The translations under genes were made by a program, and so were the position numbers. From Escherichia phage A221: DNA of 64,000 bases. Below, one piece after another: positions 3,719-59,783 of this stretch (position 1 is its first letter; every line of letters starts with the position of its first letter). The notes under the pieces are model-generated. The model was not told the origin of the DNA and did no database searches. It saw only the letters and a list, made by a program, of their open reading frames with translations. The DNA lies in sequence record ON862890.1. One strand, given 5' to 3'.

Positions 3719-3725
3719 GCTAAAT
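3719..3725 (+). promoter_or_regulatory. late-promoter-like motif CTAAATA(cccc)
   Basis: CTAAATAcccc 38 nt upstream of tailspike 2 start; recurs before seven other genes. Confidence 0.5.
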
Positions 3726-3762
3726 ACCCCATATTGGCAAATCCTCTATGGGGTATCTTCAA

Positions 3763-15317: not shown

Positions 15318-15324
15318 CTAAATA
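15318..15324 (+). promoter_or_regulatory. late-promoter-like motif CTAAATAcc
   Basis: 24 nt upstream of ATG 15348. Confidence 0.5.
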
Positions 15325-15347
15325 CCTTCAAAATTGAGGGTATCGAT

Positions 15348-22037: not shown

Positions 22038-22044
22038 TAGTTTA

Positions 22045-22070
22045 CCCCGCTGAGGCGGGGTTTTAGTTTT
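22045..22070. terminator. bidirectional terminator between convergent genes
   Basis: CCCCGC-tgag-GCGGGG followed by ttttagtttt; between gene 21681-22037 (+) and endonuclease gene (-). Confidence 0.6.
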
Positions 22071-23847
22071 CCAGTTCATACCGGATAAGACCACACCCCC
22101 AGATACGCCCCAACCCGGCTTCTATCGCCAGCATATCCTCTGTTTTACCTTCTACATCGTATCCAAGTTTAAGGAATTTCTCTTTCCTGAAATTGAATTT
22201 GTGTATACGTGAGCCATAGCCCGGAGTCACATATTTGTAATCAGGGGGAAGGATTTCCTTTTCAACAAATCCGTTATTCAGGTAAACATTTTTCAGACGA
22301 CTGACAACACAACGATCACCAAAAGAATATACTGTCTCACCCCGATGTCGAGCGATATAATATTTCAGCAAGCGTGAGAATGCGCCATGACAATTGTTAG
22401 AAGCAAATCTCACCAATTCAATACCATGCGTCCGTTTGGTAAACAACATCACCGCCTGGATATTCCCAGTTTTGTCTACAAGGTGTATATAATCTGTCGC
22501 CACCACACCACCTTGTATATGGAATCGGTCGAGAAAGTCCTTGGACGTCCTATAGGAGCCTTCTAAAATGATATGTTGGCGAGCGTATGACAATGGTTTC
22601 CCTATCCCCAATTTTGCTTTAAGGAGTGATTTAACCACTTCCCGTTTGTCACGCCACTCATCTTCCCAGATATGGATTAATTGAATACCCTGGGCTTCAC
22701 AGTACATGGTCTTTTCAAGATGGTAGTCTTTGTATCGATGTTTCTCTGTATGCCAGTACAAGCCGTTAAATTCTATTGCCAACTTATGTTCTGGGCAGTA
22801 TATGTCTATCTGGCGTGTGGTCACCCTTCCGTCGAACATTTTACCTCTGAGGACGGAGAAATTACCAGATTCGCATATAACACCCAATGAATCCAGGTAT
22901 GAACATATTTCTATTTCTGGCTGCGTTTGGCTTTGGCTGCTGGGGTACGTGAAAGAGTTCCTATATTCTTCAGAAGAGAAATAGTGAGGTACGCCGTATT
23001 TTTCTTTTGAAATGATCCTGGTATTGACCTGGCTTCTATCCCATATAGCCTTTACCTTCAACGGATAATCAACCCCATATTTTAAGACGCATGTTTTCTT
23101 TCTCTTTTCTATAATGGAATTGAGGAACATTGGATGATCCACACCATAGATCTTCCTCCAAGTCTCAATCACCCTTTCCCTCACTTCTGGCATTTTCATG
23201 ACGTGTGATACGCCATAGCGTTCCATGACGGAAGCAGCCACTCTGTCCTTTATAACATCAGACTTCATAGGGTGGTCGACCCCATATTTCTTAAGGACAG
23301 TTTCCCGCGACTTTTGTTTTACTTCTTCCAGTTGGAATGTGTTGGCTACGCCATATTTCTCTGATATGGCGTTTTCTAGGTTGACCCGTTCTGAGCCTCC
23401 CGCCTTCATTGATTTTCGTTGGCATTCTTCGGAACAAAACTTTTTGTATCTGGGTGGTTGGGCTTCCATTTCTAAGCCAACGTCAGCACCGCAAGTGACA
23501 CACTGCGACTTCGGAATATCGTACAGCCAAGCAGTTATCGCTTGTGGTTCTTCTAATAGGTCGTTGTGTGACACCACGTATCCAACAACATCAACCCCAG
23601 TATGGGCCGTGAGTAGGGGATGAGAGATAAGTTTGTAGTTCAACGAACCATCTTTCTTCCTGAGTTTACTATCAACCCAAGAGCGGCATTCGGTTTCGGT
23701 CGTCGGGATGTTATCCAACAAACCCGGATTGCGTTTCATCGTTCCCAGCATGAATGATTTACATTCGTCACTACAATACAACGCAGCCTTCCTGGTTGGG
23801 GTGAACGGTTTGTGGCAGCATGAACAATTTTTATCGGGGAATGGCAT
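22063..23847 (-). CDS. putative homing endonuclease, Hef-like (zinc ribbons + KYGV repeats + PD-(D/E)XK-like nuclease domain)
   Basis: Minus strand; ATG at 23847 with GAGGA RBS (track codon 1 is GTG); CxxC pairs; six imperfect repeats with core KYGVxHPM; EFNGLYWHTE...IHIWEDEW restriction-endonuclease-like motif; paralog of 29838-31826. Confidence 0.65.
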   Translation of the reverse strand: MPFPDKNCSCCHKPFTPTRKAALYCSDECKSFMLGTMKRNPGLLDNIPTTETECRSWVDSKLRKKDGSLNYKLISHPLLTAHTGVDVVGYVVSHNDLLEEPQAITAWLYDIPKSQCVTCGADVGLEMEAQPPRYKKFCSEECQRKSMKAGGSERVNLENAISEKYGVANTFQLEEVKQKSRETVLKKYGVDHPMKSDVIKDRVAASVMERYGVSHVMKMPEVRERVIETWRKIYGVDHPMFLNSIIEKRKKTCVLKYGVDYPLKVKAIWDRSQVNTRIISKEKYGVPHYFSSEEYRNSFTYPSSQSQTQPEIEICSYLDSLGVICESGNFSVLRGKMFDGRVTTRQIDIYCPEHKLAIEFNGLYWHTEKHRYKDYHLEKTMYCEAQGIQLIHIWEDEWRDKREVVKSLLKAKLGIGKPLSYARQHIILEGSYRTSKDFLDRFHIQGGVVATDYIHLVDKTGNIQAVMLFTKRTHGIELVRFASNNCHGAFSRLLKYYIARHRGETVYSFGDRCVVSRLKNVYLNNGFVEKEILPPDYKYVTPGYGSRIHKFNFRKEKFLKLGYDVEGKTEDMLAIEAGLGRIWGCGLIRYELEN

Positions 23848-23895
23848 AATAAATATCCTCACTTTGGAGTATTTTAACCCCCATTTATTTCAAAA

Positions 23896-29837: not shown

Positions 29838-31826
29838 ATGATTCATATATGCCGGACATGCAAAACCTCATTCGTCAATGCCCAGTCAAAGGCCGTCTAC
29901 TGTAGTGTTGATTGCAGAACCTTTTACCAAACAGTTGGTATCAAATTCTCCCCAGAGTTAATGTCGGACGCCAAATTTATTCAAACTGAAGATGACTACA
30001 AAGACTTCATCCGTGAATATTTCTATATGAAGAATGGCAACCTGAATTACCAACTACTATCTTCACCCCTGTTGTCATCTTACCTTGGCGTAGACCCCCT
30101 CAAATATGCCAACCAGCACAACTCTGAAGAATCCGTGAACACCCGTGTATTGGTCTGGTTACACGACGTCAAACCAACACCTTGTATCACCTGCGGTGCT
30201 AGAACTTCTGTCGAGATTAAGAAGTCTATCCCATCCTACCGGAAATATTGTTCGGAGGAATGCTATGCCCAATCAATGAAGTTGGGTGGTGAAGCCCGTA
30301 AAGTCTTGGACAAGACAATACTGGACAAATATGGCGTGGAAAACGTGTTCCAGGATGAATCCATAAAAGGGAAGGCACGGTTGACCATGCTGCAGCGTTT
30401 CGGCGTAGAACACATTATGCAGTCTGAAGAGGGGCGGCAGCTATTCAGAGATTCCGTTATGGAAAAATATGGGGTTGAGCACCCGATGCAGTTGGAAGAG
30501 ATCAAACGGCGCGCATGGGATACCCTCGGTGCTCGGTCTTGGTATGCTACTTCAGAAGGTAAAGCTGCGCGGGAGAAGGCATTTGGTGGATACCAAGGCG
30601 GTCATCCGATGCGTGACAGGGGTGTTATAGAGAAGATAATCTCAAACAATCTCAAGCGGTATGGTGTTGAATGGCCTGCTCAAGACCCTGTTATCAAAGC
30701 TAAAGTTGTAGACACCATGTTGGAAAAATATGGTGTGTCCCACCCATTACAAATACCAGAAGTGAAAGCCAGAGTCAAACAAAGTCACCAAACAAAGTAC
30801 GGTAGATTCTATTTCAATAGACATGAGGTTATGTTATTGGCTTCGGAACGTTCTAAAGAGACATGTGTTAGAAAATATGGTGTACCATATGCGTTGCAGA
30901 ACAAATCCATGTGGGAACACATTACGTCATCCCTTAATTCGAAATCAAAACCAGAAATAGAAATATCTGATTGGCTCACTTCAATGGGGGTTGCCCACAA
31001 ATGCTCCGACTTCACCCTCCTAAACAATATGAATTGCCAGGACGGTGGAACTCGACGCCAGATAGACATCTATTGCCCAGAACACAAACTGGCAATAGAA
31101 TTTAATGGCCTGTATTGGCACAGTGAGATACACAAATATCGCCGTTATCATCTCGAAAAGACAGAGGCATGTGAAGCACAAGGCGTTCAGCTGATACACA
31201 TCTGGGAAGATGAGTGGCATAACAACCCAGAGATCGTGAAAGGGTTGCTGGCTGCCAAACTCGGGATCAAGAAGCCATCCGGGTACGCCCGTCAGTGTTA
31301 TGTAGAGGAAGGTAAGAAGTCGGATATTCTAGAACTCCTGGCCTCTCAACACATACAGGGCACCATTCATTCGGCCACGCATTACCTTCTCCTCAGAGAT
31401 AAGAGAGACAACCGGGTTCGGGCTGTCATGACCTTTATCAAACGTGTGGTGAAGGGGGAACAGTGTATGGAACTTACGAGGTTTGCCTCCGACGGCATTC
31501 ACGGGGCGTTCTCTAAACTGCTGGCGTACTACAAGGAACATCTCTGGGATGGCGTGAAGACTTTCTCCTTTGGCGATAGGTGTGTTGTTAGTCGGTTGTC
31601 CAACATTTATCTTTCTCACGGGTTCGTCGAGGAAGAAATACAAGACCCGGATTACAAATATCACAAACCAGGGACTCTCATGCGGGAGCACAAGTTTGGA
31701 TTCAGAAAGGCAGACTTTGCTCGCATGGGCTATGGCGTAGAAGGTAAGACAGAAGATCAGTTAGCAACCGAAGCCGGGCTGGTCAGGATTTGGAATTGTG
31801 GACTGATCAAATATGTCTTGAACTAA
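29838..31826 (+). CDS. putative homing endonuclease, Hef-like (paralog of 22063-23847)
   Basis: 662 aa; N-terminal CxxC zinc ribbons; seven KYGVxHPMQ-type repeats; EFNGLYWHSE...IHIWEDEW nuclease motif; C-terminal about 200 aa clearly homologous to the minus-strand copy; own TATAAT-like box at about 29803. Confidence 0.65.
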   Translation: MIHICRTCKTSFVNAQSKAVYCSVDCRTFYQTVGIKFSPELMSDAKFIQTEDDYKDFIREYFYMKNGNLNYQLLSSPLLSSYLGVDPLKYANQHNSEESVNTRVLVWLHDVKPTPCITCGARTSVEIKKSIPSYRKYCSEECYAQSMKLGGEARKVLDKTILDKYGVENVFQDESIKGKARLTMLQRFGVEHIMQSEEGRQLFRDSVMEKYGVEHPMQLEEIKRRAWDTLGARSWYATSEGKAAREKAFGGYQGGHPMRDRGVIEKIISNNLKRYGVEWPAQDPVIKAKVVDTMLEKYGVSHPLQIPEVKARVKQSHQTKYGRFYFNRHEVMLLASERSKETCVRKYGVPYALQNKSMWEHITSSLNSKSKPEIEISDWLTSMGVAHKCSDFTLLNNMNCQDGGTRRQIDIYCPEHKLAIEFNGLYWHSEIHKYRRYHLEKTEACEAQGVQLIHIWEDEWHNNPEIVKGLLAAKLGIKKPSGYARQCYVEEGKKSDILELLASQHIQGTIHSATHYLLLRDKRDNRVRAVMTFIKRVVKGEQCMELTRFASDGIHGAFSKLLAYYKEHLWDGVKTFSFGDRCVVSRLSNIYLSHGFVEEEIQDPDYKYHKPGTLMREHKFGFRKADFARMGYGVEGKTEDQLATEAGLVRIWNCGLIKYVLN

Positions 31827-32844: not shown

Positions 32845-33081
32845 ATGATTATCAAAAAGATCGGCGCAAGTCCTCTCACTGGTACTATATTCCAGGGCAG
32901 GTTGAACACCAAAACCAGCATGTGGGTTGGTGAGAAGACCGACGTGACAGATGACTGTGTGGCAGCTGTAGCCGAACACTTGCGTCACATCAAGAAAGAC
33001 TATTGCTTCCCAACGACGGATGGTAAGTTTCTGGTGCTGAGCGCCGAGGTTCACGACACCCTTCCTGATCGCTTCAAATAA
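32845..33081 (+). CDS. hypothetical protein
   Basis: 78 aa; ATG with gagg RBS; tightly packed after previous gene. Confidence 0.4.
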   Translation: MIIKKIGASPLTGTIFQGRLNTKTSMWVGEKTDVTDDCVAAVAEHLRHIKKDYCFPTTDGKFLVLSAEVHDTLPDRFK

Positions 33082-33093
33082 ATTTTAAATTTA

Positions 33094-33180
33094 TTCAATA
33101 AACGGGGTTTAATTCTTCAATAAACCCCGTATACTTCATTCCATAAGCAGCACAACACTGACTTGAAATGAAGGAACTAT
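33094..33180 (+). repeat. dispersed repeat related to 21612-21677, with ACGGGGTTTA/TAAACCCCGT hairpin
   Basis: cttcaataa...cataagcag...acttgaaatgaaggaactat shares about 80% identity over about 66 bp with the leader of gene 21681. Confidence 0.55.
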
Positions 33181-33282
33181 CACCACTCTCGTTACAAAGT
33201 AACATTGCAGCAATTTGTTCTAAACCTTTGAACAGGGTATGTTAACCACATACCCTATCCCCTACAAATAGAGGACTTTATC

Positions 33283-33603
33283 ATGGCTAACAGCATCCCG
33301 ATTTTAGAAGCGGTCGTAAAAGAGAACCCTCGTGCGCGCAAACCACGTCGCCGCCTGACCACCAAGCTGGATCTTCTGAAACAGAAGTTCGGCGACCACA
33401 GTGTGTTCACTCGCATTCGAAATGCAATAAAGGAAGGGCGAACTGAGCTGGAGCTATATCGACCGAACGGTTCGACACGCGCGTATCAGACCACTGACGG
33501 CTTACTGGAACTGATCCGCCTGAGCGGGATGACGATCGAACCTCGTTCGTCAGGTACTCCTCTGTGCTCCCTGTACGTAATCGGCAATCTTGGGGCGCTG
33601 TGA
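33283..33603 (+). CDS. hypothetical basic protein
   Basis: 106 aa; ATG with agagga RBS; Arg/Lys-rich N-terminus. Confidence 0.4.
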   Translation: MANSIPILEAVVKENPRARKPRRRLTTKLDLLKQKFGDHSVFTRIRNAIKEGRTELELYRPNGSTRAYQTTDGLLELIRLSGMTIEPRSSGTPLCSLYVIGNLGAL

Positions 33604-33607
33604 TTCT

Positions 33608-34030
33608 ATGAAGAAGTATATCGTTCTCATTACGGGTTCCCGCTCAATCACCGAGCGGGATAAGGTATTCGCCAAGCTGGACGAACTCTTGGATCCTCGT
33701 GAGGTCTATACACTGATTGAGGGTGAAGCCTCTGGTGTAGACAAGATTTGCCGTGATTGGGCTGAAATCAATTATGTTCATATCACTCCTATGCCAATAC
33801 CTCCGAGCTATTATGAAAAGTATGGGAAAGGGATGGGCAACAAACGCAATCAGGACATGTTAGACAAGGCATTGGATCTCGTCAGACAGACCAAGCTGGA
33901 AGTGTATCCGATTGCGATGTGGGATGGTTCGTCCACTGGCACCCTGGACATGATCAACCGTTGCAAGAAAGCTGGCCTCCCTGTGGATATCACTCTAATG
34001 GGTAAGCCGAAGACCAAGCGCCTTTTGTAA
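33608..34030 (+). CDS. SLOG-superfamily protein (DUF2493-like), putative nucleotide-binding
   Basis: IVLITGSRSI...EGEASGVDKICRDWA...GKGMGNKRNQDML matches the remembered DUF2493 pattern ITGSR / GxASGxD / G..RN..M. Confidence 0.5.
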   Translation: MKKYIVLITGSRSITERDKVFAKLDELLDPREVYTLIEGEASGVDKICRDWAEINYVHITPMPIPPSYYEKYGKGMGNKRNQDMLDKALDLVRQTKLEVYPIAMWDGSSTGTLDMINRCKKAGLPVDITLMGKPKTKRLL

Positions 34031-34070
34031 CATACCATAAATAATTGAATACACACAGCGGAGATACATC

Positions 34071-34241
34071 ATGTTTGTCGTCATCAATCTGTTCTGTTAT
34101 ATCTTCACGGCGTACTTCTTGGGCGCGGTAGGGATCGAGACCTACAATGACCTGAAGGATGGGGAATACGCCAACCGAATGGTTTATGTCAAGAAGTTTG
34201 TTCGTAAGTTCTGGTCCAACTTCGTTTACAAACTACCATGA
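34071..34241 (+). CDS. small hydrophobic protein (56 aa)
   Basis: Not in track (under 60 aa); ATG with ggaga RBS; translation MFVVINLFCYIFTAYFLGAVGI... indicates one TM helix. Confidence 0.3.
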   Translation: MFVVINLFCYIFTAYFLGAVGIETYNDLKDGEYANRMVYVKKFVRKFWSNFVYKLP

Positions 34242-34244
34242 TCC

Positions 34245-34251
34245 CTAAATA
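34245..34251 (+). promoter_or_regulatory. late-promoter-like motif CTAAATAccccc
   Basis: 29 nt upstream of ATG 34280; 5' arm of AAATACCCCC/GGGGGTATTT inverted repeat. Confidence 0.5.
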
Positions 34252-34279
34252 CCCCCATCATCCATGGGGGTATTTTCTT

Positions 34280-35008
34280 ATGAACGCACAGATCTATGAC
34301 GCCCTATCACAGGGCAACGCCTTTACCAATCCTCTCCCGTCCCTCAGCAGCGCCTCACAGGGGTTAATCACCAGTGGTAAGGCGACTACAGCGTCACTGG
34401 CTAACACCGGAAATGCGCAGATTCAGGAAGCGCTGACGGCAGGTGGGTTGACTACAGCCAAACTCAACGAATCTACAGCAATGTTCAACTCAGCCAACAA
34501 CAGCATCACTACTTTGAACAACTATGGCGACCAGTCAGTGAAAGAGGCATATTCCCGCATCGGTACATCTGTGTCGTATAAGTCCGCCCTGAAGTCTATA
34601 GGTCGAGAACCGAACAACTGTGATCTGATCAATAATGCATTTGGGGTTATTCAGAACCTCGGCAAACAGTGGATCAACACCATGCAAAGTGTTCTCACAA
34701 CTATCACAAACAAGATGAATGAGCTGGCTGAGTTGGTAGCTCAGGGCGTCGGTGCTGGTCTTGATGCTATTCAGGCACTGGCTGCTGAAGTTACTCAAGC
34801 CATCGACACCGCTGTCGCATCAGTAGCCTCTATTGCTCAGGACATCACGAACGGTATTGCAGCAGAGTTAGCCCATATCCAAGACATGGTTGGTAAGTGT
34901 CTTAACTTCTCTTTTGCCAACGTGATCTCAGAGTGGGCGAAAGATATCTGCGCCGGAGGTGTCATCAACAGCATTGGTTCCGATAATCTGAAGAACGCAC
35001 TGAAGTAA
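34280..35008 (+). CDS. hypothetical protein (Ser/Thr/Ala-rich, possible minor virion protein)
   Basis: ATG at M15 of track ORF 34238, downstream of CTAAATA motif at 34245 and in gggggtattttcttATG context. Confidence 0.45.
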   Translation: MNAQIYDALSQGNAFTNPLPSLSSASQGLITSGKATTASLANTGNAQIQEALTAGGLTTAKLNESTAMFNSANNSITTLNNYGDQSVKEAYSRIGTSVSYKSALKSIGREPNNCDLINNAFGVIQNLGKQWINTMQSVLTTITNKMNELAELVAQGVGAGLDAIQALAAEVTQAIDTAVASVASIAQDITNGIAAELAHIQDMVGKCLNFSFANVISEWAKDICAGGVINSIGSDNLKNALK

Positions 35009-35416
35009 TCAGTGCTCCCGCGCCGGAAGAACTCCCACTGGTTCGATGCCATCCAACAGCAGGGAGTTCACACCCACATTACTCAGTCTGATCAAGATCG
35101 TTCCCCCTGGGTTAACTTCAAAGATACTCATCCCATTTCCAACCGCGTCGTTGTTAACGAACACGCCCTGAGTTGCGATTCGTACTGGTTTATCTGTGTC
35201 ATTCATGATCTTGAACGTCACGATTATATCCGATGTTGTACCCAGTCGTCCAACCATGCGTTGCTTCAGCTTGGCGTAGAATGATGGATTAAAGGTGATA
35301 ATGATGCTGTTGTTCTGAGAGTAATAAATACTTGCTGAAATGTATGGTATCTTCCCTTCATCGCCATGCCGCAGGAGAGGAATTGTGGTCTTCCAGTATG
35401 GCTTGAGGGTGCTCAT
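35009..35416 (-). CDS. hypothetical protein
   Basis: Minus-strand ORF; the C-terminal 135 codons look protein-like; start uncertain (ATG 35416, 35488 or further); stop codon abuts stop of plus gene 34280-35008. Confidence 0.3.
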   Translation of the reverse strand: MSTLKPYWKTTIPLLRHGDEGKIPYISASIYYSQNNSIIITFNPSFYAKLKQRMVGRLGTTSDIIVTFKIMNDTDKPVRIATQGVFVNNDAVGNGMSIFEVNPGGTILIRLSNVGVNSLLLDGIEPVGVLPAREH

Positions 35417-35687
35417 GTTCTCATCAAAGCAACCTAAAGGTACGAGTTTCTGGAAGGGCTGGAACTCTTGCACGATGATGTCCAGCATACCCTTGTCACA
35501 AGTAGGAACGCTGGCCGACAACGTCACAGGTACAGTGCGCACTTCTGGGTTCCAGAATTCGGAAACAGAAATTATTGGCGTGACAAAGATGCGACAGCTC
35601 GTAAACAAGAGCATCGAGCATGCCAACAACAATCTACTGATCCCGCGCATCAGGGTCACAACATATCTCCACAGCAAAGGTGCTATT

Positions 35688-36200
35688 ATGTCCAACGTAC
35701 AATTCAAGAACGAAAACCCTAATTTCGCGGCGTCCGATAAGTGGCGTCTGACTATCGGAGACCTTATACTCCTAACCCGTAACATACACGACTTCAGTAT
35801 ACCAGGAGTGTACTCCGAAGGCATCGATGGTCCGTCTCCTGGTGACGTGTTGGTTTCTATACCTTCAGAGCGTTTAACCTATGACCCCGTAGTATTTACT
35901 TTCGTTATAGACGAGGACTGGAAATCATGGTTACAGATCCACCAATGGATTACCAGCAACGTCGGCAAGGATTTGCCTGTCAGCAAGGACATTACCATTG
36001 AATTGCTGGATAACCTCAACCGACCGATTGGCCTCACTCTCGTGCTGGAGGAAGCCCGCCCGACTGCTTTGGACAACGTACTGGTGGACGTAGACGCGGC
36101 TGTACCTCAGCTGGTGACGACAGTGACCTTCAAGTTCCAACAGCTGGTTCCACTATCTGGTGGGAAGGCGATTGATTCTAATCCGCAAAATGCGGTATAA
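35688..36200 (+). CDS. hypothetical protein
   Basis: ATG at M117 of track ORF 35340 with aaaggtg RBS; upstream part of track ORF overlaps divergent minus gene. Confidence 0.4.
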   Translation: MSNVQFKNENPNFAASDKWRLTIGDLILLTRNIHDFSIPGVYSEGIDGPSPGDVLVSIPSERLTYDPVVFTFVIDEDWKSWLQIHQWITSNVGKDLPVSKDITIELLDNLNRPIGLTLVLEEARPTALDNVLVDVDAAVPQLVTTVTFKFQQLVPLSGGKAIDSNPQNAV

Positions 36201-36230
36201 TTCTATGACATTGACAAGCTGGGATATTTT

Positions 36231-36683
36231 ATGAAAGAACAACTACAGACAATGGCTACCGAGGACATCATGAACGAACTGGAGCCGCTGATCACAGTGG
36301 ACCCAGAAGACATGAACCTTGACCAGATCTCACTGAAAATCGGGCGCTCTTGGATGGCTGTGCAGCGGCATTATCTGCGCGAGGGGCGTTATCTTGAATT
36401 TCTCAACGGGCGCTTCCGCCAGATCGATCTCTATCTGCGCCGCTACTATGCAGGGGAGTTACCCCCTAACATCTACGCAGAGCGCCCCCTGAAGGTTCGC
36501 CCCCTGAAGTCTGACCTAGATACATGGGTCAAAGCGGACGATGACTATGTGGAGTTGTCTGTTCTGTTACAAGAACAAAAAGCAAAAGTCAAGTTCATAG
36601 AGACTTGTTTGGATCGCCTAAACAAACTGGGATACGAAGTGAAAAATGCTATTGAGTGGAGAAAATATATTGATGGTGTATAA
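36231..36683 (+). CDS. putative recombination mediator (UvsY-like)
   Basis: 150 aa; YYAG and C-terminal LGYEVKNAIEWR segments resemble T4 UvsY as remembered; lies next to UvsW-like helicase as in T4. Confidence 0.4.
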   Translation: MKEQLQTMATEDIMNELEPLITVDPEDMNLDQISLKIGRSWMAVQRHYLREGRYLEFLNGRFRQIDLYLRRYYAGELPPNIYAERPLKVRPLKSDLDTWVKADDDYVELSVLLQEQKAKVKFIETCLDRLNKLGYEVKNAIEWRKYIDGV

Positions 36684-36698
36684 CGAGGATCACACATA

Positions 36699-37445
36699 AT
36701 GGCATCTCTCCAGGATCTACGCAAGCTGAATGACTTCGAAAACCGTCATTACACATTTCAGCAATACGAACTTCCTCATAAGGAACTGGAGTGTGTTACG
36801 ACGGAGAATGGTCGTCATTACGTTTCACCGTCTGGTGTAAAACTGACATCCGTCACGACTATGCTGGGGCGCACTGGAGATCATGAATGGCTTGAGTCTT
36901 GGAGGAAGAAGCTGGGCGCAGAGGCCGCTGACCTTGAGACCATGCGCTGTGCTGACCGAGGGGAGAAGCTGCACCTTGCGTGTGAACTGTATCTAAAGAA
37001 CCGCCCAATGAAAGAAGTGTTGGAAGCGGCTGGCGAATACATGTTCATGTTCAAGCAGCTGTTCCCTTACCTGAACAAGATGACAAAGATCTATGCTCAG
37101 GAGATCCCATTATATAGTGAGGTGCTTGGTCTTGCAGGTCGTGTAGACCTTATCGGGGTTTATGAGGGTAAACCTGCTGTCATCGACTTCAAGACATCGA
37201 ACACCATGAAGACGCGGGGCATGATCGAGGATTACAGTATCCAGCTGTGCTTATATTCGGTCATGTTCCAGCAGATGTTCGGCGTCAAGATCACCCGCCT
37301 CATCAACGTGATTGCCAACGAGTCTTCCCCTCTACCAACCGTCATTGAGTTCAACCGTGATGACATTCTGACAAAGATGTTTGAGCGTGTTCGTCTGTAT
37401 CATCGCATGGATAAAGAACAAAACGGAGTCTGGCCGGATCACTAA
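36699..37445 (+). CDS. PD-(D/E)XK-family nuclease (putative exonuclease)
   Basis: 248 aa; GRVDLIGVYEGKPAVIDFKTS contains a D...D-x-K signature typical of the restriction-endonuclease-like fold. Confidence 0.5.
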   Translation: MASLQDLRKLNDFENRHYTFQQYELPHKELECVTTENGRHYVSPSGVKLTSVTTMLGRTGDHEWLESWRKKLGAEAADLETMRCADRGEKLHLACELYLKNRPMKEVLEAAGEYMFMFKQLFPYLNKMTKIYAQEIPLYSEVLGLAGRVDLIGVYEGKPAVIDFKTSNTMKTRGMIEDYSIQLCLYSVMFQQMFGVKITRLINVIANESSPLPTVIEFNRDDILTKMFERVRLYHRMDKEQNGVWPDH

Positions 37446-37448
37446 ATA
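37442..37448 (+). promoter_or_regulatory. late-promoter-like motif CTAAATAcccc
   Basis: Overlaps TAA stop of upstream gene; 26 nt upstream of UvsW-like ATG 37474. Confidence 0.5.
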
Positions 37449-37473
37449 CCCCATAATCCTTGGGAGATTTTGT

Positions 37474-38982
37474 ATGGCAGACATTCAGATTGTTAAGGTT
37501 AACGAAGTCCGCATGCGTTGCATCGCAGATCTTTCTATCAGGGAAGAACTTAATGACTACTTCAAATTCGAAGACCCGAACTTCGTTCCCAACCCCTTCT
37601 CTAAATGGGACGGGGTTGTCCGCCTATTTACCAAGTCATCTGGTCTAATCGATATCGGTCTGCTGTTTGAGGTATTTAAGTTCTGTAAGAACAACGGATA
37701 CACCATTGAACTGGATCCGGCACTGAAGTACATTCAGGACATCCCAGATGAAGAAATCCGTGAATTCATCGACAGTCTGCATCCAAAGATCCGTACCGAA
37801 AATCACGAATATATCGATGCCGAGACTCGTGACTACCAGTATGACACCATCGCCAAGGCTATGCGTCAAACCAGATGCGTCTGTGAACTGGCTACGAGTG
37901 CCGGTAAGTCCTTTATTCTGTATGTCATGGCGCGGTACTACAGGCGGCGCAGAGAAGCTCTCGAAAGTCCTCTGAAGACGCTTATCGTGGTGCCGTCAAT
38001 CCACTTAGTCACTCAGCTGTACGACAACTTCGAAGAGTATGCGCATGGCAGTGATTGGAAGCCCGTTGTTAACACCCAGCTGATTTTTGAGGGCGCGACA
38101 AAGGAGATCAGCAAACCAATCGTCATCAGTACATGGCAAGGCATTCAAGATCAGCCGAAGGAATGGTTCCACCAGTTCGGTGATATCGTGGTGGATGAAG
38201 TGCACACCTCCAAGTCTGAGAAACTGTCTTACATCCTAAACAACTGCATCTATGCCGACCAGCGCCTGGGGGTTACAGGTACGCTGGCGAATACCAAAGT
38301 TGCCGGGCTTCAGGTGGTGGCTCACTTCGGGGCGTACCATAAGATCATCACGGCTCGCGATCTCATCAATCTCGGGTACGCCACTGACATCAAAGTGAAG
38401 ATGATTCAGCTGAAGCACACTCCGGCGGATGCTGTTGGTCTGGACGGGGATTATTCCAAGGAAATAGAATACCTCATTACACACCAGTCCCGCAACGAAC
38501 TGATCGCCAAGATGGCACTGAATCTGAAAGGAAACGTGGCCATCATGTTCGAGCGTATTGATGGTCACATGATGGTCGTGTATGATATGCTGAGCGCAGT
38601 CAAGCCCAACGTGTTTGTCATCAACGGGGAAGTGAAGATCGAAGACCGCCGCCGCATACAGAAAGCGATGGAGGATGGAGAGGACATCACCCTGTTGGCA
38701 TCATACGGGACAATGCAGCAGGGAGTGTCGATCAAGAAGCTACACCACCTTGTACTGGCACACCCGAGCAAGTCATATATCCGCGTCATACAGACATTGG
38801 GTCGTCTGATGCGTCAGCACTCCTCTAAGGACGTCGCGTGGATATGGGACTTAGTGGATGATGCATCGTACAACGCCAGCACGAACCACGCTCTTAGGCA
38901 CTCTCACGAGCGTTACAAGTTTTACCTGGCAGAGCGCCACCCTGTGGAATTCATGAAGGTGGCGCTGGGTAATCACGATTAA
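37474..38982 (+). CDS. uvsW: DNA helicase (T4 UvsW-like, SF2)
   Basis: ATG at M32 of track ORF (codon 1 TTG); ELATSAGKS Walker A, VVDEVH motif II; overall resemblance to UvsW; CTAAATA at 37442 overlapping upstream stop codon. Confidence 0.75.
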   Translation: MADIQIVKVNEVRMRCIADLSIREELNDYFKFEDPNFVPNPFSKWDGVVRLFTKSSGLIDIGLLFEVFKFCKNNGYTIELDPALKYIQDIPDEEIREFIDSLHPKIRTENHEYIDAETRDYQYDTIAKAMRQTRCVCELATSAGKSFILYVMARYYRRRREALESPLKTLIVVPSIHLVTQLYDNFEEYAHGSDWKPVVNTQLIFEGATKEISKPIVISTWQGIQDQPKEWFHQFGDIVVDEVHTSKSEKLSYILNNCIYADQRLGVTGTLANTKVAGLQVVAHFGAYHKIITARDLINLGYATDIKVKMIQLKHTPADAVGLDGDYSKEIEYLITHQSRNELIAKMALNLKGNVAIMFERIDGHMMVVYDMLSAVKPNVFVINGEVKIEDRRRIQKAMEDGEDITLLASYGTMQQGVSIKKLHHLVLAHPSKSYIRVIQTLGRLMRQHSSKDVAWIWDLVDDASYNASTNHALRHSHERYKFYLAERHPVEFMKVALGNHD

Positions 38983-39350
38983 TCTTGATTCACATAGGCG
39001 GGGGTGGCCTCGCCTTCATCAGTTACTACACCGAACAATTTGTCCAGAGAAGCCAGACATTGTGAGTTCAGGTGTTCACTGATCGTATCCTTCAGCATTT
39101 GTTCGCTACCCAATTTGAATGGCAGAACCTTCGCTTCGATGCCGTTTTCAAACGTCACAACGCCAACATACAGACCAACTTTCAGGCCTGTCATCAAGCC
39201 AAGGGGGACAAATCGCGGCTCCGATGGTAAGTGCTTGTCTGACGCCAGCTGTGTCAGATAAACTGGGGTGCCTGTGATAAATTGACCTGTGGTGAGGTTG
39301 GCGTCTGGCTTACTACACCCGACTGCGTATAATCCTACGAACTGTTTCAT
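38979..39350 (-). CDS. hypothetical protein
   Basis: 123-aa minus-strand ORF with ATG and gagag RBS, diverging from the AT-rich iteron region. Confidence 0.4.
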   Translation of the reverse strand: MKQFVGLYAVGCSKPDANLTTGQFITGTPVYLTQLASDKHLPSEPRFVPLGLMTGLKVGLYVGVVTFENGIEAKVLPFKLGSEQMLKDTISEHLNSQCLASLDKLFGVVTDEGEATPAYVNQD

Positions 39351-39533
39351 ATATTACTCTCGTGTGTTGGTTAACATGACATACATATTATTTCGCGTGC
39401 ATGTTTAGACCAAATAAATTATTTTTGCTGTTGAATAAAAACTGCTTTCTTGTTGAACAATGGCGTGGTATTATACGAGTTGTGAGCGTTAGCGAACAAC
39501 GAGTATTTGTTTTATGAGCGAAGCGAATAGGAT

Positions 39534-39598
39534 TAATAAAGATTATTATCTTTAATAAAGGTTATTATCTTTAATAAAGGTTATTATCTTTAATAAAG
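39534..39598. repeat. tandem direct repeat, about 3.4 copies of a 19-bp unit
   Basis: taataaag(a/g)ttattatctt repeated head-to-tail in the 380-bp AT-rich divergent intergenic region. Confidence 0.85.
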
Positions 39599-39601
39599 TC
39601 C

Positions 39602-39622
39602 ATAAATGCCGAAGGCATTTAT
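39602..39622. repeat. perfect 9-bp inverted repeat (palindrome)
   Basis: ATAAATGCC-gaa-GGCATTTAT immediately after the tandem array. Confidence 0.8.
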
Positions 39623-39731
39623 TAATAACGCGTAGCGCAATTTGCCACTTGTTCTATAAGCAAAACACAGCGATACTAGATTGCGTCAAACATGACTTGA
39701 ACCCCCCACTATATTTTGAGGATACATACAA

Positions 39732-40400
39732 ATGCAAGAGATCACTCTCTCCGAACGTACACTTCAGTTGCTGGCCAACTTTGAGACCATCAACCCATCT
39801 ATCGTTCTGACACCGGGCAAGATGCTGCGCAGTATTAATGATTCTTCTACTGTGATCGCCGTGGCGCAGATCGAAGAAGACTTCCCGTTTGAGTTCCCGA
39901 TTCTGGACCTGACCAAACTTCTGGCCATCCAGCGCCTACCTTCCTTCAAAGGTGCCAAAGCCGAATTCCATCAGGACTACATCCTGTTGAAAGGCGAAAG
40001 TTCTCAGCTGCAATTCTGGCGTTCTGCTAAAGAACTCACTGTTGTTCCGGCTGACACCATTGAACTACCGTCTGTCGACTTTGAAGCGATCATCACTCCA
40101 GAGAAGATGAAAGAACTGACCCGCGCCTGTTCTACCCTCGGACACAAGACTGTGCGCCTGGTTGCTCAGGGTGGCAAAACTCGCCTGGTTGCAACCACCA
40201 CTACCCTGGACAACTCCAACAACTACACTGTTGAGCTGGGTGAAACCGCGCTGCCGGACTTCGTAATGCCGCTGGATGTTGCCAACCTGAAAATGATCGA
40301 AGGCAACTACACTCTGCGTGCATGTGCTGATCTACAGATGGTGAACTTCCAATCATCCGACGCGACGATCAATTACTTCGTCGGCGCACAGATTGAGTAA
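39732..40400 (+). CDS. gp45: sliding clamp (T4 gp45-like)
   Basis: 222 aa; N-terminal LQLLANFETINPSIVL resembles gp45 LLKNFATINSGIML; followed by gp44/gp62/regA-like genes in T4 order. Confidence 0.8.
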   Translation: MQEITLSERTLQLLANFETINPSIVLTPGKMLRSINDSSTVIAVAQIEEDFPFEFPILDLTKLLAIQRLPSFKGAKAEFHQDYILLKGESSQLQFWRSAKELTVVPADTIELPSVDFEAIITPEKMKELTRACSTLGHKTVRLVAQGGKTRLVATTTTLDNSNNYTVELGETALPDFVMPLDVANLKMIEGNYTLRACADLQMVNFQSSDATINYFVGAQIE

Positions 40401-57255: not shown

Positions 57256-58974
57256 GTGACAGCATTCAACCAATATACCAAGGCGCTTGACGGCGTCGGA
57301 CCAGTCAGCATAGACCGCATCAAGTCTCTTGCCACTGAGTTCTTCCCGTATGACACCGCCAACCCCGGCCAGATGGAATGCATCGTTGAAGCCATTGATG
57401 CCCTTGTGAATAAGAAATTCAAACACGTGATCATCGAGGCTCCGACTGGTGTAGGTAAATCCCTCATCGGCACTACCATCCATAATGTGCTTCGCCATTT
57501 GGTTCTTGAGCACAACCCGTATGGTCAGTTCCGCACGTCTATCACGACGCCGACCAAAGGTTTACAGGATCAGTATGCAGCAGAGAAAGCCGTGGCGATA
57601 GATATCCTGAAGGGCAAGAAGAACTACCGTTGCCACATCAGTCCCGACCTATACTACAACGCCATTCAGTGCCGTATGGCATGCCGTGATGGCCACTGTA
57701 GTAAGAATCGTTGCCCATATGTTCAGGCGCGTCGACAGTGGACCGACGTCTCCTCCCTGCGCTGCACCAACGCCGCCATGATGGTGGAGATGTGCACGAC
57801 GATCTGTATGAAGCCGGAAAACCGCGCCGATATGCTGATCCTTGACGAGTGTCATAAGATGCCCTCTACGCTGCTAGAGCATACTATCATGGAATACAAC
57901 ATAAAGGCTGTGGAAGGGTTGCTTACGATCCCCGAGGGAGTGCCTATCGTGGAGACCATCAAGGATATCATCATCCGCACAGAGAACTATGAATTGGGCA
58001 AGCTGTATTCCCTGTCTGGTGAGATGCATGCGATATTTGATGAACTGCACGGCAAGGTTGAAGCCCTGTTGGAAACTCTTGAGGAACTGGTAGAGGACGA
58101 GCGCCTGACTGAAGCCCAGGTGATGAAGCTGTCTGATATTATTGATACTCTTCACAACCTCAGCGACTACTGTGGTATCATGGGGCAGACCAACGCCAGC
58201 ACTTTCATCGTACAGGAGAAGGACAAGGGTATGATTCAGTTCAAGCCTGTCATCGCCTCTGATGTATCCCAGTTCGGCCTGTTCCGCAAGGGTGACTACC
58301 ACGTCCACATGTCGGCTACCATTTGTGGGATTGACTCGTACGCCCGGTCACTGGGTATCCGCGAGGGTGAGTACCACAAGATACAGATCGGCAACCCTAT
58401 CCCGATTGAGAACCGGAAAGTCAACTACATGCCCATCATGAAGATGACAGCGAACATGGGTGACTACGAGATGAAGAAGCTGGCTGAATACGTGGATGAA
58501 ATTATCGCGTTCCACCCTGGGCAGTCTGGCATCATTCACACAGTCAGTTATGACCGCGCCCTGGCTCTACAAAAGTTCAGTAAGTACCGGAATATGATTC
58601 ACGTTCCTCGTACTCGTAAGGCTCTGATGGACATCATGGAACACGCGTTCAGGACGAAGACACCTTGTGTCATCGCCAGTCCGGCCATGGAAGAGGGGTA
58701 TGACTTCAAAGGCGATTATAGTCGATTTCAGATCTTGATCAAGGTGCCATATGATTACCTTGGTGATCCTCTGGTGGCCCACGTCAACAGTGTGGACCCA
58801 TCGGCGTACTTCAGGATGGCGGTACTGCGTATCGTTCAGATGTGTGGGCGTTCGGTCAGGGGTGTGAATGACTGGGCTGCGACGTACATCCTTGATTCTT
58901 CTTTTGAATCACTGATGATGCGCAACCCAGAGTTCTTCCCCGCTTGGTTCACTGATGCCGTGTTTGAGGTTTAG
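57256..58974 (+). CDS. DinG/XPD-like Fe-S helicase (SF2, DEAH-type)
   Basis: GTG start with aggagga RBS (first in-frame ATG is 39 codons in); IIEAPTGVGKSL Walker A; ILDECHKM motif II; Cys cluster CHISPDLYYNAIQCRMACRDGHC between them. Confidence 0.7.
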   Translation: MTAFNQYTKALDGVGPVSIDRIKSLATEFFPYDTANPGQMECIVEAIDALVNKKFKHVIIEAPTGVGKSLIGTTIHNVLRHLVLEHNPYGQFRTSITTPTKGLQDQYAAEKAVAIDILKGKKNYRCHISPDLYYNAIQCRMACRDGHCSKNRCPYVQARRQWTDVSSLRCTNAAMMVEMCTTICMKPENRADMLILDECHKMPSTLLEHTIMEYNIKAVEGLLTIPEGVPIVETIKDIIIRTENYELGKLYSLSGEMHAIFDELHGKVEALLETLEELVEDERLTEAQVMKLSDIIDTLHNLSDYCGIMGQTNASTFIVQEKDKGMIQFKPVIASDVSQFGLFRKGDYHVHMSATICGIDSYARSLGIREGEYHKIQIGNPIPIENRKVNYMPIMKMTANMGDYEMKKLAEYVDEIIAFHPGQSGIIHTVSYDRALALQKFSKYRNMIHVPRTRKALMDIMEHAFRTKTPCVIASPAMEEGYDFKGDYSRFQILIKVPYDYLGDPLVAHVNSVDPSAYFRMAVLRIVQMCGRSVRGVNDWAATYILDSSFESLMMRNPEFFPAWFTDAVFEV

Positions 58975-59738: not shown

Positions 59739-59783
59739 AGTTTCATTCCTCTTTCTATAAAACCAGTTTGGGATATTTATATC

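Follow-up and report, generated by a model that had tools for sequence, protein, structure and literature searches.

The locus described here lies in a window of 64,000 nucleotides from Escherichia phage A221 (ON862890.1), the whole stretch of DNA that was analysed, in which nearly all genes are carried on the plus strand. Over bases 33500-36700, identity was 99.7% to the Escherichia phages PC3 and PH4, 98-99% to several further phages of E. coli and Salmonella and about 90% to Shigella phage AG3. The window and the matches listed fall within the Ackermannviridae, subfamily Aglimvirinae (Vi1-like), and one of the phage's genes codes for a gp55-like late sigma factor. In this region a lone minus-strand gene, predicted to encode a lipoprotein of the DUF7424 family, is placed between two plus-strand genes, with no nucleotides separating its 3' end from a DUF7217 gene and a short gap separating its 5' end from a gp3-like tail gene (Table 1). 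The same gene layout was common to Agtrevirus, Limestonevirus, Taipeivirus and Kuttervirus.

Table 1. Coordinates of genes and sequence elements at the DUF7217/lipoprotein/gp3-like locus, numbered from the first base of the window.
Feature	Position	Strand	Details
Late-promoter-like element	34245-34255	+	CTAAATACCCC, conserved Viunalikevirus motif, ahead of the DUF7217 gene
12-bp terminator-like hairpin	34247-34275		AAAUACCCCCAU/AUGGGGGUAUUU, then UUUUCUU; directly before ATG 34280
DUF7217 gene	34280-35008	+	242 aa; PF23854, 306.6 bits; PHROG 2114, E 2.5e-109
7-bp hairpin over both stops	34997-35015		GCACTGA (34997-35003), loop AGTAA, TCAGTGC (35009-35015)
DUF7424 lipoprotein gene	35009-35659	-	216 aa, 651 nt; GTG start 35659-35657, stop TGA 35011-35009
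Signal peptide codons	35659-35597	-	Part of lipoprotein gene
Lipobox Cys22 codon	35596-35594	-	Part of lipoprotein gene; lipobox LFTSC
Embedded TAAATAC	35325-35331	+	Antisense in lipoprotein codons S-I-Y-Y; weak candidate promoter for the gp3-like gene
Gap between divergent start codons	35660-35687		28 nt
gp3-like tail-tube-fold / tail completion gene	35688-36200	+	170 aa; PHROG 45, E 3.7e-33
Embedded TAAATAC	35892-35898	-	Antisense in gp3-like codons V-F-T; weak candidate promoter for the lipoprotein gene

The minus-strand frame is, on sequence grounds, a real and conserved protein-coding gene. Its product matched Pfam family PF24199 (DUF7424) with 192.6 bits over positions 2-196 of 196, at a gathering threshold of 27 bits, and PHROG 3832 with an E value of 5.6e-94 over positions 1-214 of 216. 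A homology search of the minus-strand protein had been proposed in the initial annotation; by tblastn, 293 phage records matched it over the full length, none with less than 80% coverage, and the lowest identities, 24-25%, were in Vibrio and Aeromonas phages. The genera represented were Kuttervirus, Taipeivirus, Limestonevirus, Agtrevirus, Miltonvirus and Nezavisimistyvirus. Close homologues in the protein database numbered 52 and ranged from 147 to 219 aa, most of them having 201-219 aa, an exhaustive profile search yielded 68 cluster representatives, mostly of about 185-260 aa, and a scan of IMG/VR gave one locus only. Together with an invariant lipobox cysteine, the Pfam match and the 293 records dispose of the earlier suggestion that the frame is spurious and the region a long 3' untranslated stretch.

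The extent of the gene had to be revised. Of the ORF first drawn at 35009-35416 the stop end was correct, while position 35416 corresponds to an internal, non-conserved methionine and the gene extends to 35659. The maximal minus-strand ORF comprises 271 aa, to which PHROG 3832 aligned at residues 59-270 and DUF7424 at residues 80-270. A ribosome-binding site, GGAG (35670-35667), is located 7 nt upstream of the GTG codon, and this GTG was retained in 11 of the 14 aligned relatives. The boundaries in Table 1 were adopted because of the conserved GTG and GGAG and the full-length profile matches. This 216-aa model is already present in the annotations of AG3, PP35 and Maynard; PC3 and CECAV050 annotate a 159-aa version without the signal peptide, and in PC3 the gp3-like coding sequence has been extended into the lipoprotein gene. 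Several GenBank records (Kuttervirus) already label the homologue 'putative lipoprotein'. The window gene shares its length, signal peptide, lipobox cysteine and a conserved cysteine pair with the PF24199/PHROG 3832 family, as well as the divergent position relative to the gp3-like gene, and no material difference from that family was observed. It could still be argued that the frame is open by chance and that 35009-35687 is untranslated RNA of a plus-strand operon, given that a plus frame is also open across the region (ORF 35340-36200) and that GenBank annotation is inconsistent between 159 aa (PC3, CECAV050) and 216 aa (AG3). Full-length matches to both profile collections and in phages down to 24% identity, the invariance of the lipobox cysteine, the conserved start codon and ribosome-binding site and a confident structural model (see below) make this extremely improbable.

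The product is a predicted lipoprotein precursor and, by its N-terminal sequence, a predicted substrate of signal peptidase II. The N-terminus (MTLMRGISR-LLLACSMLLF-TSC-R) is composed of a charged n-region, a hydrophobic h-region and the lipobox cysteine, and matches the PROSITE PS51257-type pattern. Cys22 was invariant in alignments of both 30 and 70 sequences and Ser21 in the 30-sequence alignment; Cys54 and Cys77 were invariant among the close homologues of the 30-sequence alignment and conserved to 90% or more in the larger one. The lipobox pattern (PROSITE-type) was also matched by 55 of 67 distant representatives. The residue at lipobox position -3 is phenylalanine, which is allowed by PROSITE but unusual, compared to leucine in most relatives. 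In E. coli, sorting of lipoproteins is governed by the +2 rule, and outer-membrane sorting is therefore predicted from the arginine at +2. The protein would leave the cytoplasm, receive its lipid at Cys22 and probably end up in the outer membrane. AlphaFold2 supplied with the 70-sequence alignment gave a confident alpha/beta model (pLDDT 90, pTM 0.84); the model built from close homologues alone was poor (pLDDT 66), and a Foldseek search of the PDB with that poor model was uninformative. A structure search of BFVD returned other DUF7424 proteins only and no functional lead, and profile searches of PDB sequences, NCBIfam, PADLOC and Rfam were empty or irrelevant.

The PF23854 match of the DUF7217 product covers positions 1-238 of the 238 in the profile, at a gathering threshold of 29 bits, and the N-terminus of the gp3-like product (MSNVQFKNENP) is conserved, its product being named tail completion or tail tube protein in the records. 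The gap between the divergent start codons, 28-33 nt in relatives from all well-sampled genera, is bordered by two ribosome-binding sites, CTCC (the complement of GGAG, 35667-35670) and AAAGG (35676-35680). In Salmonella phage Sajous1 the counterparts of the DUF7217, lipoprotein and gp3-like proteins are gp166, gp167 and gp168, respectively. Mass spectrometry of purified Sajous1 virions listed gp166 and gp168 with 8 spectra each and did not list gp167 (PMC10892097). The DUF7217 product is a probable virion protein, and we infer that the lipoprotein is no virion component. As gp166 and gp168 were listed and gp167 was not, two virion-protein genes appear to flank an oppositely oriented non-virion gene.

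The abutting stop codons described in the initial annotation were confirmed. The plus-strand TAA (35006-35008) is followed immediately by the complement of the minus-strand TGA (35009-35011), leaving a spacer of 0 nt. The same spacer was found in PC3, CECAV050, an IMG/VR contig, PP35 (Limestonevirus), Magnus (Taipeivirus) and five metagenomic contigs (L012, L013, L015, L016 and L017), and a spacer of 1 nt in AG3, Maynard and Sajous1 (Kuttervirus). A spacing of 0-1 nt was retained in 12 diverged relatives whose lipoproteins are 55-98% identical to that of the window, despite a C-terminal tail that varies from 2 to 5 residues past the conserved GVLPA. By this comparison the spacing appears to be kept more than chance would explain. 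Two more isolated minus-strand genes of the window have stops that overlap those of plus-strand genes (TTAA at 38979-38982 and TTAG at 58971-58974), which makes stop-to-stop packing habitual in this genome; for a homing endonuclease gene of the window, also on the minus strand, the terminator is a normal one. The convergent pair is ordinary tight phage gene packing, that is, genome compaction. Longer spacers were observed in distant relatives, namely 29 nt in Serratia phage 3M, 31 nt in Erwinia phage phiEa2809 and 12 nt in Vibrio phage K476, and each of these consists of a strong terminator hairpin with U-tracts (z of -3.2 to -5.6).

In the window, a 7-bp hairpin spans both stop codons, its loop containing the plus-strand TAA and its right arm starting with the complement of the minus-strand TGA. 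Folding gave -12.2 kcal/mol (z -2.4) for the plus-strand RNA and -13.4 kcal/mol (z -2.9) for the minus-strand RNA. With 7 bp, four G-C pairs and a 5-nt loop, the stem is within the range used for terminators (at least 5 bp, G+C-rich, loop of 3-8 nt), and the U-tract falls short on both strands: the plus strand reads UCCCGCGC and the minus strand GUUCUUCA, with 4 U in 8. The RNA 3' of the hairpin is correspondingly UCCCGCG on the plus strand and GUUCUUCAG on the minus strand. A consensus terminator scan of 33000-37000 reported none at the junction. The initial claim of no intervening terminator thus largely holds, as there is no intergenic space and the scan was empty, but needs qualification in view of the hairpin.

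Conservation of the hairpin is uneven. It is labelled a stem_loop in the AG3 record and a terminator in the Magnus record, and paired changes preserve the stem in both, A-T to G-C in AG3 (GCGCTGA/TCAGCGC) and A-T to C-G in Magnus (GCCCTGA/TCAGGGC), where it is followed by AUUUUUC. These paired changes suggest that the hairpin may have some function in those lineages. In CECAV050, 98.5% identical to the window, an A-C mismatch interrupts the stem, and the hairpin was missing from five lineages in which the stops still abut (Limestonevirus, L013, L015, L016 and L017). Scored in a 60-nt context, the window had a z of -1.7, and five relatives (CECAV050, Limestonevirus, L013, L015 and L016) had values of +0.3 to +1.8. 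The hairpin is weak and varies between lineages, and would be at most a leaky terminator for the lipoprotein mRNA; we read it as no barrier to plus-strand transcription.

Upstream of the pair, the element ahead of the DUF7217 gene conforms to CTAAATAcCcc, a regulatory motif of Viunalikevirus with CTAAATA as its core (PMC7283392). Three exact copies of CTAAATACCCC occur in the window, on the plus strand every time, and CTAAATA occurs ten times on the plus strand and once on the minus strand, with nine of the ten plus-strand copies roughly 25-60 nt upstream of a plus-strand gene start. Across genera the invariant core of the motif is TAAATAC, preceded by C or T. A late-promoter role of the CTAAATA element is an assumption modelled on the T4 late promoter TATAAATA, which itself had one hit in 64 kb, the chance expectation, and none near the locus. 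CTAAATA also precedes a helicase gene (37442), which counts against a late-promoter role; in T4 a helicase gene would be no late gene. Overlapping the element is the 12-bp hairpin (-17.2 kcal/mol, z -4.8); the Magnus and Maynard records give a terminator at the equivalent position, and the hairpin is conserved as [CT]TAAATACCCCC...GGGGGTATTTT in 5 genera.

Pattern scans and scans with a weight matrix built from the 11 motif sites of the window, with which accepted sites score 15-24 bits, gave no CTAAATA-type site on the plus strand at 34900-35700 or on the minus strand at 35650-36400. No promoter-like site was found by the scans in the gap between the divergent start codons, and for the gp3-like gene they gave none besides that at 34245. 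Further late genes of the window also have no motif of their own, and co-transcription is therefore common in it. As no promoter-like site lies in between, the simplest course would be for the DUF7217 and gp3-like genes to share one transcript. For the lipoprotein gene, the early motif TTCAAT-N14-TATAAT had no minus-strand match upstream, and nothing usable came from scanning 33000-37000 and 35600-39800 for sigma-70 promoters and terminators. One promoter-like site was observed ahead of uvsY (36172-36201).

Taken as a whole, the locus is best read as a real, tightly packed convergent pair with antisense late read-through, in which the lipoprotein gene has a promoter of its own; we put the probability of this at roughly 60%. 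Late transcription from the CTAAATA element at 34245 would pass the junction unstopped, and the resulting plus-strand RNA would run antisense through the lipoprotein gene and serve also as mRNA for the gp3-like gene. Such read-through in antisense is the most likely course suggested by the sequence, and the region is probably an intercistronic part of a late, polycistronic plus-strand mRNA. The lipoprotein gene would be transcribed from a putative minus-strand promoter inside or beyond the gp3-like gene, probably at another time of infection than late plus-strand transcription, and its transcript would either end inefficiently at the junction hairpin (tail GUUCUUCAG) or run in antisense into the DUF7217 gene. 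Meeting or antisense transcripts, as raised in the initial annotation, are plausible and fit the layout; they would be hard to avoid because there is no plus-strand terminator, the start codons are 28 nt apart and the gp3-like gene has no promoter-like site. Antisense regulation at the junction, part of the same proposal, may follow from such a layout. A search of the papers available found no transcriptome for the Ackermannviridae.

Two other arrangements of transcription were weighed against this reading. The junction hairpin might be a working terminator for the lipoprotein mRNA, possibly in both directions, that insulates the genes so that no transcripts overlap. Its local stability, its labels in the AG3 and Magnus records, the stem-keeping changes and the AUUUUUC of Magnus all point this way, as do the bidirectional intrinsic terminators found between the convergent genes at exactly this junction in 3M, phiEa2809 and Vibrio K476; the window retains a short hairpin at the same place. 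It differs from these, however, in having no spacer, a stem of 7 bp, no plus-strand U-tract and a minus-strand U-tract below the scan threshold, and in not being conserved among close relatives, as seen from the CECAV050 mismatch, the five lineages without it and the context z values, which were -1.7 in the window and positive in five relatives. Moreover, a stop on the plus strand would separate the gp3-like gene from its sole upstream promoter-like site. We regard a working terminator as unlikely.

Slightly less likely again is that the divergent pair is driven by TAAATAC-type promoters embedded each within the coding sequence of its partner (plus strand at 35325, minus strand at 35898), which would imply head-to-head transcripts overlapping by about 575 nt without read-through from the DUF7217 gene. 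Both motifs carry the invariant core of the known motif with its first base C/T, both were found by pattern prior to the conservation analysis, and each falls in the segment of highest synonymous conservation of its host gene, with AGT ATT TAT TAC and GTA TTT AC retained over 4-5 genera and the latter, in the gp3-like gene, in 16 of 17 sequences. With a family-wise P of 0.06 for the site in the lipoprotein gene and 0.15 for that in the gp3-like gene, however, this conservation is suggestive without reaching significance, and as the sites are in the most conserved amino-acid motifs the conservation test is confounded. Both sites also scored below 6 bits by the weight matrix against 15-24 for accepted sites, the leaders would be 240 and 365 nt long against roughly 25-60 nt elsewhere, and the motif is lost in phiEa2809 on the gp3-like side and in 3M and L016 on the lipoprotein side.

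The function of the lipoprotein was considered in the light of its distant relatives. An envelope-level role such as superinfection exclusion is a weak guess. In a Paracandidimonas prophage, the gene of one distant DUF7424 member immediately follows that of a cI-like repressor and lies opposite cro- and cII-like genes; such a position after the repressor is typical of exclusion genes. Another member has a restriction-modification system and a Peptidase_S24 fragment as neighbours, another is encoded convergently with a TonB-dependent receptor gene, and others lie close to toxin-antitoxin genes or Rap1a immunity genes or in plain chromosomal contexts. A single-protein scan of genome contigs gave 3 loci with unrelated neighbourhoods. 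These few, mixed neighbourhoods may be weakly taken as compatible with envelope-level exclusion or protection, comparable to T5 Llp. Llp of T5 and Cor of phi80 and N15 are phage-encoded exclusion lipoproteins, and in T5 llp is transcribed opposite to oad. Like these, the window protein is a lipoprotein of a virulent phage that is not listed in virions, is encoded opposite to adjacent structural genes and has the one distant homologue just downstream of a prophage repressor. It is, however, about 3 times larger than Llp, and Pfam profile and BFVD searches gave no sequence or fold similarity to exclusion lipoproteins of the Llp/Cor type.

A role other than exclusion, whether in lysis, in assembly as a helper or in remodelling the envelope to aid adsorption or release, is a possibility to be taken seriously even if we do not favour it. 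The gene is present family-wide beside a tail gene, its divergent pairing with the gp3-like gene holds in the distant relatives L009, L010 and L021, and cellular homologues are found in ordinary chromosomal contexts too. Against this stand the prophage homologue next to the cI-like repressor and the omission of the protein from the virion list. As regards lysis, an o-spanin of the Rz1 type is a short, proline-rich outer-membrane lipoprotein whose gene is nested in, or adjoins, that of an i-spanin as part of a lysis cassette. The window protein shares with it the character of a phage lipoprotein with a residue other than aspartate at +2, but is globular and beta-rich with 216 aa, and its gene has the DUF7217 and gp3-like genes as neighbours, no adjacent i-spanin gene and no lysis cassette, and PC3 carries another 'putative lipoprotein' at a different place in its genome; identification as an o-spanin was rejected.

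Long read-through antisense transcripts are known from the excludons of Listeria and from the overlapping early and late transcripts of T4. The layout here resembles that of excludons in that a long RNA would be antisense to one gene and mRNA for the next, and differs in that the flanking genes are not known to act in opposition. We consider it improbable, about as much so as the embedded promoters, that the locus forms an excludon-like unit in the well-sampled genera of the Ackermannviridae, created by loss of the terminator, in which the late mRNA silences an early envelope or exclusion lipoprotein. If it did, switching on tail-gene expression would turn the lipoprotein off.

Both genes of the convergent pair fall into established Pfam families, and their arrangement can be seen, in part already annotated, in several hundred public genomes. 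The finding matters little beyond annotation, where the corrected gene model has a length of 651 nt, starts with GTG and includes a signal peptide. DUF7424 emerges as a lipoprotein family with members in relatives across the Ackermannviridae and with further relatives in a prophage and on bacterial chromosomes. Overlapping transcripts are a familiar theme in phage biology, and antisense read-through at this junction, if true, would be a tidy case of timing by gene layout in a family of phages that is used therapeutically.

The promoter-like motif CTAAATAC preceding the DUF7217 gene was observed to double as the left arm of a hairpin, the right arm of which (GGGGGTAT) contains a likely ribosome-binding site immediately 5' of the ATG. 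The stem spans 12 bp at -17.2 kcal/mol and is followed by UUUUCUU. The element is kept as [CT]TAAATACCCCC...GGGGGTATTTT in five genera, and similar elements are found elsewhere in the window (see table). RNA reading in from upstream would either be terminated at the hairpin or have its ribosome-binding site hidden, and RNA initiated at the motif itself would be made without the left arm. The arrangement resembles the early/late arrangement of the T4 lysozyme gene.

Features of the window by position
Feature	Position	Strand	Remark
Motif-hairpin element	34245-34279		Before ATG of DUF7217 gene; CTAAATAC left arm, GGGGGTAT right arm
Similar motif-hairpin element	3720-3747		
Similar motif-hairpin element	15318-15347		
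Similar motif-hairpin element	37442-37473		
Convergent pair, stops overlap as TTAA	38979-38982	+/-	Helicase (+), PHROG 4255 (-)
Convergent pair, stops overlap as TTAG	58971-58974	+/-	Helicase (+), PHROG 3833 (-)
Large homing-endonuclease gene	22063-23862	-	Interrupts structural gene block
Large homing-endonuclease gene	29838-31826	+	Interrupts structural gene block

Packing of isolated minus-strand genes stop-to-stop recurs in the A221 genome, with stops overlapping in two further convergent pairs. The sole exact T4-type TATAAATA in the window (59774-59781, minus strand) precedes the start codon (ATG) of the PHROG 3833 gene on that strand by approximately 35 nt. This minority-strand gene may belong to the late genes. 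The PHROG 4255 gene is separated from the sliding-clamp gene by a divergent intergenic region of roughly 380 bp (39351-39731). Within it lie a TATAAT-type element, a terminator-like hairpin (ATAAATGCCTTCGGCATTTAT) and a tandem repeat of TTAATAAAGGTTATTATCT (39533-39598; 19 bp unit, 3.5 copies, 97% matches); the region might serve as an origin or as an array of binding sites. The terminator hairpin of the minus-strand homing-endonuclease gene, at 22043-22068, is canonical.

Conserved starts were identified at GTG 35659 for the DUF7424 lipoprotein gene (35009-35659) and at ATG 35688 for the gp3-like gene (35688-36200). In public records of two close relatives, PC3 (ON184125) and CECAV050 (PQ306799), the lipoprotein CDS is cut to 159 aa with loss of the signal peptide, and in PC3 the gp3-like CDS is lengthened to 222 aa, which results in overlap with the lipoprotein gene. 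A sigma-70-like promoter (TTGATT-18-TATAAT, 36172-36201, 10/12 matches) directly precedes uvsY (36231), which may accordingly be transcribed independently of the gp3-like gene, from an early or middle promoter of its own.

In two independent bacterial contigs (L025 and L026), a TonB-dependent receptor gene was found convergent with a gene for a distant DUF7424 lipoprotein homologue. As receptors of this kind are targets of phage lipoproteins such as T5 Llp, the pairing may merit attention.
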